A stretch of DNA of 64,000 nucleotides from Eubacteriales bacterium (GTDB lineage: Bacteria > Bacillota > Clostridia > Oscillospirales > CAG-382). The position numbers and the translations under genes were made by a program. The DNA lies in the NCBI GenBank assembly GCA_045600125.1, contig JAZRXH010000119.1:1513-65512 (forward strand), written 5' to 3'. The notes beneath the pieces were generated by a model that saw only the letters and a program-made list of their open reading frames with translations, made no database searches and had not been told where the DNA came from. Of the stretch, positions 4,158-50,985 are shown piece after piece (the first letter of the stretch is position 1; each line of letters opens with the position of its first letter).

Positions 4158-4552
4158 CAGGGGGCTGCTCGCCCCCTGCGACCCCGTCGCCGCCTTTTGA
4201 AAAAGGCGGGCGAAAACTTTGAAATGAGGCAAAGCCCTGAAGCGGGCTTTGCCCTGGCTTTTCTCAAATAAAGGGTTATTGCCTACGGTCTGTTGCGGCA
4301 GTGCATGCCGCAAGCGCCTCCCTTGGCGCTTGCGACAGCGCTAAAGTTTTCTTCGCAAACTTTCACTCAGAGAAGCTTTGTGCGAAGTGACCATGAGCTT
4401 TGCCGCTTTGATATACGGCGGCAAAGCGGGGCAACAGTCGGGCATCTGCATTTCCGATTTATACGGAGGTGCATTCTCGTATTGCCTGCGGGGCTCCCCG
4501 CAAAAAGGCGGGCGAAAACCTTCAAATAGTCAAAGTCCGTTCGGACTTTAAC
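4158..4552 (+). repeat. Modular palindromic intergenic repeat, copy 1
   Basis: GGGGCTGCTCGCCCC; CGCCTTTTGAAAAAGGCGGGCGAAAACTTT; AAAGGGTTATTGCCTAC; GCTTTGCCGC...GCGGCAAAGC; CAAAGTCCGTTCGGACTTT. Confidence 0.9.
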
Positions 4553-6389: not shown

Positions 6390-7028
6390 GCAAGCGGCGG
6401 GGAAGCCCCCGCGGGCAACTCGGGACTGTACCACAGACAAAATCGGGAGTGCAGATACCCGAGTATTGTCCGGCTTTGCCGCCATAAATTCAAACGTCAA
6501 AGCTCATGGTCACTTCGCACAAAGTTACTCTGCGTGAAAGTTTTCGAAGAAAACTTTAGCATGTCGCAACAGACAGTAGGCACTTACCCTTTAGTCAAGA
6601 AAAAACGCAGCCCAAGTCCGTTTGGACTTGGGCTTATTTCAAAGTTTTCGCCCGCCTTTTTGCGGGGAGGCCCCGCCGCCACTTCGGGACTGCACCGCAG
6701 GTGAAATTCGAGAGCGCAGATGCCCGGAACTATCCCCGCTTTGCCGCCATATATTCAAGCGGCAAAGCTCATGGTCACTTCGCACAAAGTTTCTCTGAGT
6801 GAAAGTTTTCGAAGAAAACTTTAGCATGTCGCAACAGACAGTAGGCACTTACCCTTTAGTCAAGAAAAAACGCAGCCCAAGTCCGTTTGGACTTGGGCTT
6901 ATTTCAAAGTTTTCGCCCGCCTTTTTCAAAAGGCGGCGACGGGGTATGGGGGCGAGCAGCCCCCAAAAAGGTTTGCAGGGGGCGAGCAGCCCCCATAAAA
7001 AGGTTTGCAGGGGGCGAGCAGCCCCCAT
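6390..7028 (-). repeat. Modular repeat, copy 3: two tandem ~265-bp units plus 3 GGGGCGAGCAGCCCC hairpins
   Basis: 6498-6661 is nearly identical to 6763-6926; reverse complement of copy 7. Confidence 0.92.
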
Positions 7029-13727: not shown

Positions 13728-13877
13728 TGGGGGCTACTCGCCCCCATACCCCGTCGCCGCCTTTTGAAAAAGGCGGGCGAAAACTTTTACTCAGTGGCAG
13801 TCCGTTCGGACTGCCACGATTCTTTTTTAGATAAAGGGTCGTTGCCTACTGTCTGTTGCGGCAGCGGGAAGCCCCCA
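13728..13877 (+). repeat. Modular repeat, copy 4, between convergent genes
   Basis: GGGGCTACTCGCCCC; CGCCTTTTGAAAAAGGCG; GTGGCAGTCCGTTCGGACTGCCAC; AAAGGGTCGTTGCCTACTGT. Confidence 0.9.
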
Positions 13878-22897: not shown

Positions 22898-23092
22898 GCG
22901 GGGCTGCTCGCCCCGTACCCTCGCCGCCTTACGATAGCGCGGGGCTGCTCGCCCCGTACCCTCGCCGCCTTATGATAGCGCGGGGCTGCTCGCCCCACAC
23001 CCTCGCCGCATTACGATAGCGCGGGGCTGCTCGCCCCACACCCTCGCCGCATTACGATAGCGTGGGGCTGCTCGCCCCACACCCTCGCCGCC
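22898..23092 (+). repeat. 41-bp tandem repeat, about 4.7 units (amplified end module of the repeat family)
   Basis: GCGGGGCTGCTCGCCCC(GT/AC)ACCCTCGCCGC(C/A)TTA(C/T)GATAGC with no unique spacers. Confidence 0.92.
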
Positions 23093-23530
23093 TTTTGAAA
23101 AAGGCGGGCGAAAACTTTTACTCAGTGGCAGCCCGTACGGACTGCCACGGTTCTTTTTTTGAGATAAAAGGATAAGTGCCTACTGTCCGCCGGGGGCAAG
23201 CGCCGCCCCCGGCGGATGTTTATTTTCGTTTTCTGATTAGTGGGTGGCTGTCTACTGTCTATTGCGGCAAGAAAGCAGTGCCGCAACAGAGGTTCTTTTG
23301 CGGTTTTAGAGAAAACTCCGGGTTTTGCCGCTTAGGATGATAACGGCAAAAACAAATCTCCGCTGAGGTCGTATCTTGATCTCAGCGGACAGTGGGAACT
23401 GATTATTGTTACAAACCCCATGAGTTTGACCGCTCAGGATCATGGCGGTCAAACGGGATGATACTCGGGCATCGGTGCTTTCGGTTTTATCGGAGGTAAA
23501 GTCCCGAAGTGGCGGCGGGGTCTCCCCGCA
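23085..23530 (+). repeat. Modular repeat, copy 5
   Basis: CGCCTTTTGAAAAAGGCG; GTGGCAGCCCGTACGGACTGCCAC; TGCCTACTGT; CCGCTGAGGTC...GATCTCAGCGG; GTTTGACCGC...GCGGTCAAAC. Confidence 0.88.
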
Positions 23531-26878: not shown

Positions 26879-27423
26879 AGGGCTACTCGCCCTGCACCTC
26901 GCCATATTGTGGGTCTACTCGCCCCACACCCTCGCCGCCTTTTGAAAAAGGCGGGCGAAAACTTTCAAATAGTCAAAGTCCATACGGACTTTGACGGGAA
27001 TTTTTTGAATAATGGGTCATTGCCTACTGTCTGTTGCGCAGGAAAGCAGTGCCGCAGCGGGGTACCCCCGCAGGCAAATCGGGACTGCACTTCCGACAAA
27101 ATCGAAAGTCCCGATTCCCGAGTATCATTCCGTTTTGCCGCCATAAATTCGAGCGGCAAAACTCAATGCTTATACCAATATCAAAACTTACCTGTGTTGC
27201 GGTGCTGCTTTTCCGCTGCAGTGTGGGTACCCCCGCGGGCAATTCGGGAATGCACCTCAGTAAAAAAACGGAATAAGGTGATCCTTTGTTCTGAAAAACA
27301 CCCCGTCAAAGTCCGAACGGACTTTGACTATTCAAAAGTTTTCGCCCCGCCTTTTTCAAAAGGCGGGCGGGGGTGTGGGGCGCGCAGCCCCGCAAAAAGG
27401 GGGTATTGAGCGAGCAGCCCCGC
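26879..27423. repeat. Modular repeat, copy 6 (inverted composite with outward-facing ends)
   Basis: CGCCTTTTGAAAAAGGCG plus GTCAAAGTCC...GGACTTTGAC at 26934-26996, and the inverted set at 27304-27393. Confidence 0.88.
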
Positions 27424-29646: not shown

Positions 29647-29997
29647 GTGGGGCTGCTCGCCCCCCCGGATTTATGGGGGCTGCTCGCCCCCATACCCCGT
29701 CGCCGCCTTTTGAAAAAGGCGGGCGAAAACTTTGAAATAAGCCCAAGTCCTGTCGGACTTGGGCTGCGTTTTTTCTTGACTAAAGGGTAAGTGCCTACTG
29801 TCTGTTGCGACATGCTAAAGTTTTCTTCGAAAACTTTCACTCAGAGAAACTTTGTGCGAAGTGACCATGAGCTTTGCCGCTTTGATATATGGCGGCAAAG
29901 CGGGGCAACATTCGGGCATCTGCGTCTCCGTTTTTTACTGAGGTGCATTCCCGATTTGCCCGCAGGGGCTACCCTGCTGGCGGCGGGGGCTCACCGC
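29647..29997 (+). repeat. Modular repeat, copy 7, between convergent genes
   Basis: Near-identical reverse complement of the copy 3 unit; AGCCCAAGTCC...GGACTTGGGCT hairpin variant. Confidence 0.92.
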
Positions 29998-34220: not shown

Positions 34221-34908
34221 AGGGAGCCCCTGCGGGCAATTCGGGAATGCACCTCTGTATAAAACGGGAGTGCATATGCCCGAGTATTGTCCCGCTTTGC
34301 CGCCGCGGGGAGGCCCCGCTGCCACTTCGGGAATGCACCGCAGACAAAAACGGGAATACAGATGCCCGACTATTGTCCCGCTTTGCCGCCATATATCAAA
34401 GCGGCAAAGCTCATCCTTTATCGGAATTCGCAATTTGGAATTATTTTCTGCAGCGAAATATTTGCGCTTTGCGCAAATGTGAAATAATGGCTTTTCGCCA
34501 TTGTGAAATATTCTCGCTTTCGCTCGAATGTGAAATGAAATAAACTCCCTCATTTTCACGCCCGCAGGCATTTCACACGCCGCAGGCATTTCACACGCCG
34601 CAGGCGTATTTCACACCCGAAGGGTATTTCACAAATCCCGTAAGGGATTTATTTCACTGCGGAGTGTTCCGAGGACACTCCGCATGGGAGCCCCCGCCGG
34701 CAATTCGGGAATGCACCGCAGACAAAACCGGGAGTGCATATGCCCGACTATTGTCCCGCTTTGCCGCCATATATCAAAGCGGCAAAGCTCGTGGGTTCTG
34801 TGGAAACGGTTATCTCCTACCGTCCGCTGAGGTCAAGACACGACCTCAGCGGATATTGTTTCGGAGCACTCGGTAAAAGTTACTTTGAGTGAAAGTTTTC
34901 GAAGAAAG
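34221..34908 (-). repeat. Modular repeat, copy 8 (three GCTTTGCCGC units) enclosing a hairpin ladder
   Basis: Units at ~34225-34305, 34325-34412 and 34700-34790; CCGCTGAGGTC...GACCTCAGCGG at 34824. Confidence 0.85.
34451..34685. repeat. GTGAAAT / ATTTCAC hairpin ladder
   Basis: 4 G(T/C)GAAAT motifs then 6 (A/T)TTTCAC motifs, mostly separated by short hairpins. Confidence 0.85.
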
Positions 34909-38327: not shown

Positions 38328-38551
38328 TTCGGTTTTGTCCTTTCTGATTCCTTTTTATACTTTACGGCAAAAAACTATTGCCCTTTTGCAAAAGAGCCCG
38401 AATGCAGGATTCCCCGCCCCCGGCAAAGCAGTTTTGCCGTAGCCATCACCTATATTATACCAACGATCAAGGCACGAGTCAAGGAAAATTTTCTTTTGTT
38501 CCGTCTCCCTTTCATCACGGCTCCACATTTCCACCTCTCCAAATAATCAAA

Positions 38552-39037
38552 TCTCCGCTGAGGTCGGCTTTTGACCTCAGCGGACAGTAGGCACTAACCC
38601 TTTATTCTAAAAAACACCCGTCAAAGTCCGTATGGACTTTGACTATTTGAAAGTTTTCGCCCGCCTTTTTGCGGGGATGCCCCTGCGGGCACCTCGGAAG
38701 GATTGCACCTCAGACAAGACCGCAATCCCCGATGCCCGAAACTGTCCCCGTTTTGCCGCCATATATCCAAGCGGCAAAACTCACTGCTTTCTCCAAGCCC
38801 TCAATATAACCTCTGTTGCGGCACTGCTTTATGTCGCAACAGACAGTAGGCAATGACCCTTTACTCCAAAAAATCTCCGTCAAAGTCCGTATGGACTTTG
38901 ACTATTTGAAAGTTTTCGCCCGCCTTTTTCAAAAGGCGGCGATGGGGTGCAGGGGGCGAGCAGCCCCCTGCAATAGGCGTAGACGCAGTGGGGCGAGCAG
39001 CCCCTGCAATAGGCGGAATATGGGGCGAGCAGCCCCA
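38552..39037 (-). repeat. Modular repeat, copy 9 (two tandem units plus 3 terminal hairpins)
   Basis: CAGTAGGCA...ACCCTTTA, then GTCAAAGTCCGTATGGACTTTGAC, then AAAGTTTTCGCCCGCCTTTTT, present twice. Confidence 0.9.
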
Positions 39038-47913: not shown

Positions 47914-49167
47914 TTATTCCCGGAATTCGAGCGCTAAGGTGACAGAGCCGCCTGCGATCTTTTCGAGGACGTCCCCCTTTACGTCGAAGCGCTCCATTTC
48001 GCCGGGAGTGACCTTTCGGCGGCTTTTCTTGGCAAGGACGGTATCGCCGTCGGTAAGGGTGACGGTCACGTTCCTATATACGTCGGCGACACGAAAGTAG
48101 AGCGAGGCGCCGTCCGCTTCTTTGGATATTCTCTGCGGGACGGTATACCGCACGCCGTTTTGGGGGATGACGGTGATATATTCCGAGCCTTTTTTATTGC
48201 CCCTTATAAAATCGGCGGCTCCCTTCCCTGCCGTTTCGGCTTCCTCCGATACATAATCCACCAAATCGTGGACGTGGAGAACGTTGCCGCAGGCGAAGAT
48301 GCCGGGGATATCGGTCTCTCTCGTTTCGGAAACGGCGGCGCCGCCGGTCACCCGGTCAAGGGTCACGCCCGCCTTCCCGGTCAGTTCGTTCTCGGGGATG
48401 AGTCCGCAGGAAAGAAGGAGGGTGTCGCATTCGATATACTCGGCGCTCTCCGGGACAGGCTTTCTGTTTTCATCCACCCGGCAGACGGTAACGCCGGTGA
48501 CACGTTCTTTTCCGTGGACGGCGGTGACGGTATGCGAGAGCCGGAGCGGGATATCAAAATCCTCGAGGCACTGGACGATGTTCCTCGTAAGACCGCCGGA
48601 ATAGGGCATAAGCTCCAGCACGGCTTTGACGTTTGCCCCCTCAAGGGTCATTCGCCTTGCCATGATGAGACCGATGTCGCCGGAGCCGAGGATGACCACG
48701 TTCTTGCCGGGCATCACGCCGCAGATATTGACGAACTTCTGCGCCGTTCCGGCGGTATAGACCCCGGCGGGTCTTGTGCCGGCGATATTGAGGGCGCCCC
48801 TCGAGCGTTCCCGGCAGCCCATGGCGAGGATCACCGCTCCCGCCTTTATTTGAAAGTAGCCTTCGGACGAGTTGACGGCGGTGACGACTCTGTCTGCCGT
48901 AACGTCCACGACGGTGGTATCGGTGAGGTACGGGATGCCGTACTCCTTTACTTTGGCGATGTATCTCTCGGCGTACTCGGGTCCGGTCAGCTCCTCGCCG
49001 AACCGATGCAGTCCGAAGCCGTTGTGGATGCACTGCTTGAGGATGCCGCCGAGCGCACTCTCCCGCTCGAGGATCAGTATGTCCCGTATCCCCTGCTCGC
49101 AGGCACCGAGTGCCGCACTGAGACCGGCGGGACCGCCGCCGATGATGACAAGCTCTGTTTCTTTCAT
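47914..49167 (-). CDS. NAD(P)/FAD-dependent oxidoreductase
   Basis: IGGGPAG, GGILKQCIHNGFG, AMGCRER, GSGDIGLIMARR, CGNVLHVHDLVD. Confidence 0.92.
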   Translation of the reverse strand: MKETELVIIGGGPAGLSAALGACEQGIRDILILERESALGGILKQCIHNGFGLHRFGEELTGPEYAERYIAKVKEYGIPYLTDTTVVDVTADRVVTAVNSSEGYFQIKAGAVILAMGCRERSRGALNIAGTRPAGVYTAGTAQKFVNICGVMPGKNVVILGSGDIGLIMARRMTLEGANVKAVLELMPYSGGLTRNIVQCLEDFDIPLRLSHTVTAVHGKERVTGVTVCRVDENRKPVPESAEYIECDTLLLSCGLIPENELTGKAGVTLDRVTGGAAVSETRETDIPGIFACGNVLHVHDLVDYVSEEAETAGKGAADFIRGNKKGSEYITVIPQNGVRYTVPQRISKEADGASLYFRVADVYRNVTVTLTDGDTVLAKKSRRKVTPGEMERFDVKGDVLEKIAGGSVTLALEFRE

Positions 49168-49204
49168 AAATAGTTCCGTCCTTGTTGTTTGTTCATATTC
49201 ATTT

Positions 49205-50366
49205 TCGTTTATTTCTCCGCCTGCGCCTCCGGCGGTGAAGCTATCGACTGCTCTTTTTGAGAACGGGGAACGTGTTATCCTCAAATCACGCCGTGAGTGC
49301 GGCGAACGACCGCCTTTTCTTGAAACGGGGGCGTATTGCCCCCGGCTCACGCCGTAAGTGTATCAATCGCCTTGTTGCACACGAACGGGGGCGTTACTTT
49401 TTCCACGAGCGGCAAAAGCCGATACACTTCGAAATGCATGATATGCATTTCGTGCGGTATCGCACCAAAAACGCCCGGCGGGTACGGGAGGGCGGCAGTC
49501 CATAAATGGTAACTGCAGAGAAACCACTGCACAGCAATGCTTTTTGAATGCTGTTCTCGTCCTTGTTGCGGCTTGCCCCCTCCCGCCGCCACCACACCCA
49601 CCCCGGAATACACCAATGTCTATGCAAAACTTGGTGGGGCGATGTGGGTCCCCATTGTTGCAGCGCGTCCGCAGCGGACGCTATGACTCGGAGCTTCTCC
49701 TACGGGAATGAAGAGAATGCCTTACCGAGAAGTCCTATCTAACTTTGCACACTGATAAGTATCATCACGTCAATGAGCAAGTGCTATCCTTTAGTGAGCG
49801 CCTTTCCCACGGGAAGTTGAACCGTTATCTTTTTCCCGAACTATATGCGGTCGGCGGGAATTATGCCGACCCATAGGACGGGAAAGAAGAGACCAAGTAC
49901 ATCACGCACGAACTGAGGTCAGAATTACCACTGAGGAAAAAAGTCCCCCGTAGAGCACGACAAAAATGTACATGGCGGAACCGTTCCTCGGGAAAGGTAT
50001 CGGAAAACCGCATAGGTTTTCTGATGGTAGACCATTTGCTGTCGGCAAGATGCGAGGATGCAGCCCCACACGCCGCCGAAAACAAGTGCGCAGGGTTGGT
50101 GTCGGAGGGCAACGCCCTATCCGACGGGCTCTTTTGGGTACTTTTGCAGCCCTTGGCAAAAGTCACACCACCGTTCCGTGTGCAGTGGGGCAATCGCTAC
50201 ACCCCCGGCGGGAGGCGAGGATAATACGCCCCGTATCGTGTGCAACAAGGCTATCGCTGCACTCACGGCGAGAGCCGGGAATAAATTCTTGGTCGGTCAA
50301 GGCGAATGCCTGTCAACCTCTTCCGTCACGGCAAGCCGTGACACCTTCCCCAAAGGGGAAGGCTTT
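49205..50366. other. ORF-less, hairpin-dense element bounded by inverted ~60-bp repeat arrays (candidate large ncRNA or non-autonomous element)
   Basis: 49341-49394 vs 50226-50279 inverted, 45/54 identical by manual count; more than 10 internal stems. Confidence 0.6.
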
Positions 50367-50387
50367 TGTGGCGAAGTTAAAACGATA

Positions 50388-50541
50388 TCCGCTGAGATCG
50401 TATCTTGACCTCAGCGGACAGTGGGCAGCAACCATTACCCCTTAAAAAACACCGTGGCAGTCCGTATGGACTGCCACTATTGAAAGTTTTCGCCCGCCTT
50501 TTTCAAAAGGCGGCGATGGGGCTTTTGAGGCGAGCAGCCCC
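50388..50541 (-). repeat. Modular repeat, copy 11
   Basis: CCGCTGAGATC...GACCTCAGCGGACAGTGGG; GTGGCAGTCCGTATGGACTGCCAC; CGCCTTTTTCAAAAGGCG. Confidence 0.88.
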
Positions 50542-50571
50542 AAAAAAAGAAGTACTTGAAAAGGAGAAATT

Positions 50572-50985
50572 ATGATCATATTGGGAATCGACTACGGCGA
50601 CGCAAGGATGGGCTTTGCGGCAAGCGACATGACCGGCTTTCTGGCGGGAGGCATCGGCACGGTAAAGGTGACGGGACTCCACAGCGCCGTGGAAGCGGCG
50701 GCGAAGACGGCAAAAGAGCGAGGGGCACAGAAGATCGTCGTGGGACTTCCCGTGAACATGGACGGCACCGAAGGGGACAGAGCCGCAAGATGCCGCCGCT
50801 TCGGAGAAGAGCTTGCCGAAAAGACGGGGATCCCCGTGGAGTACCACGACGAGCGCCGCACCACCATCCTCGCCGCCGGCTACATGAACGAGACCGGGAC
50901 CTACGGCAAGAAGCGTAAGGCCGCCATAGATACCCTCTCGGCACAGCTTATCCTGCAAAGCTATCTCGACAGAAACAGAAAGTGA
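50572..50985 (+). CDS. ruvX: YqgF/RuvX pre-16S rRNA nuclease
   Basis: LGIDYGDARMG, VVGLPVNMDG, DERRTT, IDTLSAQLILQSYL. Confidence 0.93.
   Translation: MIILGIDYGDARMGFAASDMTGFLAGGIGTVKVTGLHSAVEAAAKTAKERGAQKIVVGLPVNMDGTEGDRAARCRRFGEELAEKTGIPVEYHDERRTTILAAGYMNETGTYGKKRKAAIDTLSAQLILQSYLDRNRK

Follow-up and report, generated by a model that had tools for sequence, protein, structure and literature searches.

Within the window, by which we mean the whole stretch of 64,000 nt of DNA that was analysed, an oxidoreductase gene on the left and ruvX on the right are divergently transcribed and separated by a gap of 1,404 nt. This gap contains an ORF-less, hairpin-dense element bracketed by inverted arrays of ~60-nt units, the copy in the window occupying positions 49241-50285 (~1,045 nt) and being extended to 50363 by a 3' module specific to a subfamily. 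The host assembly is a MAG of 3.06 Mb in 166 contigs, 97% complete. The features of the locus are as follows:

47914-49167, minus strand: pyridine-nucleotide-disulphide (FAD/NAD) oxidoreductase gene, left flank, outside the element (Pfam Pyr_redox_2, E 7.1e-29)
49168-49240, unstranded: unique flank, upstream region of the oxidoreductase gene, outside the element (genome BLAST coverage 0-1, the sole match being itself)
49241-49381, plus strand: left arm, two ~60-nt end units preceded by a partial, degenerate one (49267-49310 and 49328-49381; unit profile)
49384-49418, plus strand: arm hairpin with the stem CTTTT..AAAAG (profile; about two per element)
49420-49463, plus strand: optional near-perfect hairpin of 42 nt, present in some copies only, in the left or the right arm (inverted pair; profile)
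49464-49815, plus strand: core module B (46 nhmmer matches)
49819-49989, plus strand: middle cassette of type 1 (10 matches), an unrelated type 2 taking this place in most other copies
49990-50140, plus strand: core module D, two hairpins with compensatory changes, ending in the inner inverted repeat (44 nhmmer matches)
50141-50284, minus strand: right arm, inverted with respect to the left arm, with arm hairpin 50141-50175 and end units 50179-50232 and 50239-50284
50289-50363, plus strand: 3' module E of the subfamily, a pair of hairpins with a T-run after the second one, which is terminator-like on this strand (terminator-like site 50344-50362)
50385-50423, unstranded: H1, a small hairpin repeat forming a family of its own and resembling a terminator on the minus strand (132 matches, 70 isolated from any core)
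50444-50548, unstranded: three-hairpin repeat T234, a separate family (100 matches, 66 isolated)
50572-50985, plus strand: ruvX, right flank, outside the element (Pfam RuvX, E 3.1e-39)

BLAST coverage along the query revealed that all of ~49248-50547 is repeated in its own genome and that 49168-49240 is unique. The preliminary description, which had placed the element at 49205-50366, was therefore too long on the left, where 49205-49240 belongs to the unique flank, and ended on the right just beyond the subfamily module.

The composition of the arms was largely as first described. The AACGGGG anchors were confirmed at 49262, 49324 and 49384, although of the three left units of ~61 bp proposed from them only two were recovered by the profile, the third being the distinct arm hairpin, which begins with the same start as the end units. 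The right end did consist of two units inverted with respect to the left arm, the direct pair 50171-50224 / 50231-50284 being 74% alike, and the best inverted pair (49341-49394 / 50226-50279) was 83% complementary over 54 nt, the very 45/54 first reported. Three more inverted pairs stretch the arms to ~49275-49487 and 50115-50284, and each end unit has a small palindrome of its own. Tandem Repeats Finder returned no rows for 49000-50700, owing to the degeneracy of the left units. The left and right arms pair together when the entire flagged stretch is folded to minimum energy, and the core (49464-50140) is more stably folded than every one of 20 dinucleotide shuffles, whichever strand is taken (z -4.27 for plus, -5.12 for minus), in agreement with the dense structure first noted.

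Coding capacity was assayed both in this copy and across the family. None of the seven ORFs tested had a Pfam match at E<=0.01, as expected from the earlier statement that no protein-like ORF was present. Mechanical ORFs of up to 159 aa do overlap the region, which is what a decayed protein-coding gene would leave, but no ORF of at least 25 codons was conserved in more than 7 of 10 complete copies, the reading frame is not kept across the gaps between copies (1, 5, 7, 14 and 53 alignment columns), and the encoded peptides, rich in Arg, Pro and Ser, vary in length and are not shared between copies, as would be expected of GC-rich DNA translated at random. A search for small conserved peptides resembling type I toxins gave none that was hydrophobic or conserved. 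With regard to known RNAs, no Rfam family reached its gathering score in the region (4227 models), so that the absence of RNase P, tmRNA, SRP and group II signatures, judged by eye at the outset, held. At E<=10 only chance-level matches were obtained, the best being P15 with 26.3 bits against a gathering score of 70, located on the terminator-like hairpins at 50454-50553; four other copies, type 2 included, gave no Rfam match at E<=1. That the element is a protein-coding gene in decay, or what remains of a known RNA gene, is thus barely conceivable. The suggestion of a single large ncRNA of the OLE/GOLLD/ROOL class was, in that form, not supported either, given that no Rfam match was found in five copies and that the sequence occurs as at least 44 dispersed copies and is not a unique gene.

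Copies of the element in the genome and beyond

The flagged stretch is one of at least 44-46 dispersed copies in its own genome and not a unique locus. A BLAST of the intergenic stretch against its own assembly gave at least 153 matches among those listed, and a second one gave 375 HSPs in 191 regions, many of them at contig ends. Iterated nhmmer searches with the two core modules yielded the 46 matches of B and 44 of D tabulated above, spread over 51 contigs. The alternative middle cassettes appear as two forms in the alignment of copies, and in the iterated profile searches type 2 had 31 matches genome-wide, compared with the 10 of type 1.

The modules of the arms were found almost exclusively in the company of the core. 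Out of 158 genome-wide matches of the ~60-nt end unit, 135 lie within 700 nt of B or D and 8 are isolated; for the arm hairpin, 70 of 72 matches lie within that distance and none is isolated; and for the optional 42-nt hairpin, 22 of 23 are near a core and again none is isolated. Module order is identical in all 10 copies that are complete within a contig: one to three end units, the arm hairpin, the optional 42-nt hairpin, B, cassette 1 or 2 and D, followed by the optional 42-nt hairpin, the arm hairpin and one to three end units, all of these inverted. B opens with 24 nt that are matched, in inverted orientation, by the ~24 nt closing D, which makes an additional inner inverted repeat (49464-49487 with its partner at 50115-50137 in the window copy). 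Module E gave 14 matches, of which 8 are near a core, and each of these 8 is oriented as D is and follows it downstream by 90-211 nt. The arms are inverted with respect to each other within the copy in 6 of 7 copies checked, and the similarity of the arms within a copy exceeded all between-copy values in only 1 of 7.

The copy in the window belongs to type 1, carries E and has ~2.5 units on the left and 2 on the right. Its nearest relative, at the start of contig C25, is 93% identical over 609 nt. Around other copies the repeated block spans 609-2,160 nt, the cleanly bounded copy on contig C6 having 1,119 nt. In the C6 copy it is the right arm that carries the optional 42-nt hairpin, opposite to its position in the window copy relative to the core, and a form skipping 49418-49464 is present in contigs of runs X1 and X12. 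On contig C161 (2208-3753), two copies lie head to head, and the second, which is inverted, is cut off by the end of the contig. Pairwise identity of B between copies has a median of 81% and a maximum of 95%, by which the copies are apparently old, with both copy number and age biased because near-identical copies would collapse in a short-read assembly.

The two repeats that lie between the element and ruvX belong to a different class of sequence. Terminator-like in form, H1 and T234 are found in either orientation and mostly independently of the 1-kb element, and the window contains another 11 partial copies of them:

4161-4231, 6880-6969, 13730-13861, 23063-23200, 23356-23396 and 26907-26990: H1/T234 copies
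27295-27399, 29670-29736, 34816-34861, 38551-38670 and 38842-38967: the remaining H1/T234 copies

About 160 nt from one H1 hairpin copy there is a full-length match to the Rfam Gut-1 RNA motif (34583-34659, minus strand; 80.3 bits against a gathering score of 50). Further families are repeated in tandem, with a unit of 87 nt (9 copies), of 180-219 nt or of 330 nt, and some of them flank copies of the 1-kb element:

C37 345-1126, C22 3923-4273, C90 3506-4665 and C9 12435-13062: tandem repeat loci

The repeated share of the assembly amounts to 9.06%, and 2.87% is repeated at least 20 times. At 3.06 Mb, the genome compares with ~1.9-2.1 Mb in several genomes of the same genus (G001, G004 and G005 compared), and the expansion of repeats may be tied to its larger size.

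Outside the genome, the element was not found in 40 relatives searched by BLAST, which gave only short T234 matches in three genomes (G005, G006 and G033, in whose loci the T234 profile recovers them again) and a match to an E hairpin in one. A covariance model of the most conserved block (R1) found nothing in 150 genomes of the same family, representing 15 genera, versus 27 places in its own genome. Exact-pattern searches of GTDB species representatives and of viral contigs gave no hit, nor did BLAST against plasmids and phages, and a profile scan of 80 metagenome loci and 13 loci of relatives detected no element module. Among the collections searched, the family thus appears restricted to this genome. 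In the contigs of X1 and X3, from two animal-gut metagenome studies, a strain ~94% identical in the flanking genes was accompanied by pieces of the element at depths of hundreds versus ~7 for the flanking genes; a related population elsewhere therefore also carries the family.

Conserved structure of the core

Module B contains a long-range helix, the most conserved block of the element (49654-49752) and two sites at which whole hairpins have been exchanged for different ones while the neighbouring blocks stayed fixed. The mean column identity of that block is 91% versus 73% for all of B, and it includes a UACG-looped hairpin that can be read as such on the plus strand only.

The comparison of copies came out in favour of conserved structure, as hairpins of both B and D are kept by compensatory changes. 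For B (alignment A1, 21 sequences), RNAalifold predicts 48 pairs, and 98.3% of the cells pair versus 97.3% in shuffles, a value reached by 0 of 500 shuffles. Double-sided changes were counted in 11 cells compared with 4.3 in shuffles, again with 0 of 500 reaching the observed number, and the 4 pairs in which they fall were equalled by 24 of 500 shuffles. On the other hand, 27 of the 48 pairs are invariant and the covariation term is only -0.16. The long-range helix shows one U-A / G-C exchange, with 11 versus 6 sequences and 3 broken. In D (alignment A3, 16 sequences), 5 of 20 predicted pairs are changed on both sides and the covariation term is -1.86. As the element occurs in a single species among those searched, no deep covariation is obtainable.

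The strand on which the structure would act was compared by several counts. RNAalifold consensus energies are nearly equal on the two strands (-48.5 and -47.7). In the default RNAalifold helices the ratio of G-U to A-C is 131/15 for the plus and 59/7 for the minus strand; in strict Watson-Crick helices the ratio of G-T to A-C is 10/27 in B and 9/7 in D; and in strand-symmetric consensus helices computed with no GU it is 10 versus 13. Hence, no consistent strand asymmetry emerges across these wobble-versus-mismatch counts, and what is constrained may be an RNA read from one strand, single-stranded DNA or palindromic sites bound by proteins.

Insertion, candidate enzymes and readings of the element

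Copies sit between ordinary genes in either orientation, and their orientation with respect to neighbouring genes is unbiased (14 same and 18 opposite upstream, 22 same and 23 opposite downstream). A target-site duplication was sought in the flanks of 10 bounded blocks and 10 copies, with no consistent direct repeat found, the outer ends being ragged because the number of units varies. The RuvX loci of 6 genomes of the same genus encode a protein 69-72% identical, are not syntenic and have no oxidoreductase neighbour, and the 80 metagenome loci retrieved for the oxidoreductase reach at most 69% identity. This divergence leaves no filled and empty sites to be compared, and the low identity of RuvX implies that the "genus" is a deep one.

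Regarding enzymes, 14 Pfam families of transposases, recombinases and reverse transcriptases were searched in the genome's own assembly. There were no matches there for Y1, DDE_Tnp_1, IS256, IS110, TnpB, ISL3, IS66, IS1595, DDE_Tnp_1_6 or reverse transcriptase, and for the Y1 (RAYT-type) family PF01797 the control genomes did respond. The enzymes present are one IS3-like rve gene, one IS of the IS630 family, one large serine recombinase and five tyrosine recombinases, and in this 97%-complete assembly no transposase or recombinase had ends matching the arms. The IS3-like rve gene was rejected as a partner, its ends being unrelated to the arms, as was the IS630-family IS, whose AT-rich ends have no similarity to them. 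The partner enzyme may be absent from the bin. The IS630-family IS itself (contig C18, 25-1258) is AT-rich, encodes a Pfam DDE_3 domain between perfect inverted ends of 31 bp and lies within a GC-rich hairpin repeat module; sequences 99-100% identical to its ends stand at no fewer than 12 contig ends, and it is therefore a collapsed, probably active multicopy IS.

The reading that we favour, and to which we give somewhat better than an even chance, is that of a lineage-specific foldback or MITE-like non-autonomous mobile repeat of ~1.0-1.1 kb. It fits best because the architecture is fixed over 1 kb, the arm modules are bound to the core, insertion occurs in either orientation, the sequence is noncoding and a single lineage holds it. 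The element would have a foldback design, in which two composite inverted arms of ~150-250 bp, each made of one to three tandem ~60-nt units and then a hairpin, enclose a polar core of ~650 nt composed of B, cassette 1 or 2 and D. It appears to have multiplied in this lineage and we infer that it moves, or once moved, as a unit. The repeated end units would putatively offer several sites to which a transposase or recombinase provided in trans could bind, and the conserved core hairpins might either serve transposition or be tolerated cargo. Of the undescribed non-autonomous mobile element first envisaged, the dispersed family of fixed architecture and its occurrence in either orientation were borne out, but no target duplication, no empty site and no enzyme with matching ends was found, and we count all three against the mobile-repeat reading. 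Also counted against it are the age of the copies set beside core parts 91% conserved with whole hairpins swapped, which suggests a constraint on a folded molecule and not the neutral decay of a dead transposon, and the polarity and terminator-like 3' end conferred by E, which fit an RNA gene.

This last observation leads to the alternative of a multicopy structured ncRNA gene family, in which the ~650-nt core, closed through pairing of the inner inverted repeat and possibly of the arms, would be transcribed from B to D into a functional RNA, while the DNA copies were spread by whatever moves the arms. We regard it as a minority possibility, and it is not mutually exclusive with the mobile-repeat reading. 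The compensatory changes of D and B, the conserved junction blocks beside hairpins swapped at fixed sites, the strand-specific UACG hairpin and the constant position of terminator-like E downstream of D argue for it; nevertheless, the wobble counts and consensus energies give no strand preference, more than half of the B pairs are invariant, and many hairpins are near-perfect palindromes with minimal 3-nt loops, like DNA-level repeats. No Rfam family and no conserved promoter were found, the sole plus-strand promoter-like site (49145-49174) being outside the element, as it starts inside the oxidoreductase gene and ends in the unique flank. In the metatranscriptome X12 there are contigs identical to 49892-50019 and further ones on the arms and on D, and none on ruvX, but these are contigs only, which carry no strand information and may hold DNA, so that they give a weak hint at most; some parts of the stretch are bare in single runs, as ruvX is in X12, and nothing was inferred from such holes. 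A little less probable still, and speculative, is that the core represents a new class of large structured RNA or a single-stranded DNA intermediate, whose folded molecule would aid the spread of the element or the host. Such a molecule would combine a conserved junction scaffold with exchangeable peripheral hairpins, two alternative cassettes and foldback arms in at least 44 copies.

Two further explanations dispense with a transposing unit. The element could be a mosaic of small palindromic repeats of the REP/BIME kind, accreted module by module and then copied by recombination or duplication. The genome is indeed rich in small hairpin repeats (H1 and T234) and in tandem families with periods of 87 and 180-219 nt, the copies of the element combine discrete variant segments in mosaic fashion, and in 6 of 7 copies the arms are no more alike than arms of different copies. 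Independent accretion, however, would not yield arm modules that almost never occur away from the core, the order of modules does not vary among the 10 complete copies, and no Y1 (RAYT-type) transposase was found, which makes this explanation improbable. The other, an invertible DNA switch in which a site-specific recombinase flips the core between the inverted arms, would account for the inverted repeats that flank the core, for the 42-nt hairpin of the C6 copy being on the opposite arm, and for opposite-strand joints at the arms seen in contigs of other samples. These joints are not assignable to this locus because the family is multicopy, and other copies, together with a hairpin that is optional on either arm, explain both them and the C6 arrangement. 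Since, moreover, there is no recombinase gene beside the window copy and the similarity between copies spans the whole 1 kb and not the repeats alone, we hold such a switch to be very improbable.

Likeness to known systems and implications

Read as a mobile repeat, the element resembles MITEs in being noncoding, with inverted ends, in many dispersed intergenic copies in either orientation, restricted to a lineage and devoid of a transposase of its own. MITEs usually measure a few hundred bases, and the element, at ~1.0-1.1 kb, is larger than that. It differs from them also in that its ends are composites of 150-250 bp made of tandem ~60-nt units instead of short simple inverted repeats, in that neither a target duplication nor a parent IS sharing its ends was found for it, and in having a core with conserved hairpins and compensatory changes. 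Eukaryotic foldback elements and the IR-DR ends of Tc1/mariner transposons have long inverted ends composed of direct subunits whose number is variable. With these the element shares, by their general description, the long inverted ends of repeated subunits in variable number; they are nonetheless eukaryotic, and any relation in sequence or enzyme would be hypothetical, the sole IS630/Tc1-family transposase of this genome being in an IS with ends unlike the arms.

The hairpin modules, mosaic combinations, intergenic position and high copy number are shared with the REP/BIME sequences of enterobacteria and with REPINs. The element differs from these in an order fixed over 1 kb and in palindromic modules bound to a 650-nt core that is never without arms, and from REP/BIME systems with RAYT in that the Y1 transposase was not found in its own genome. 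The neighbouring H1 and T234 repeats fit the REP/BIME type well. With OLE, GOLLD and ROOL, the element has in common the size class, a dense predicted structure and the lack of an ORF; it departs from them in having no Rfam match, in its at least 44 copies per genome instead of one or few, and in its occurrence in a single species among those searched. Among the titles and abstract openings retrieved on MITEs, REPINs and foldback elements, none describes it.

The element and the other repeat families make up 9% of the assembly and account for many contig breaks, and they therefore bear on the assembly and binning of gut MAGs. The at least 44 diverged copies constitute a ready alignment in which the core can be tested as RNA or as DNA. 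If the folded core were the active part, this would be a non-coding mobile element acting through a folded nucleic acid with no relative in Rfam. If the mobile-repeat reading holds, bacteria can carry kilobase-sized, protein-free interspersed repeats with ends built from subunits and a constrained, hairpin-rich core, a design usually linked to eukaryotic foldback and IR-DR transposons and absent from current catalogues of prokaryotic repeats.
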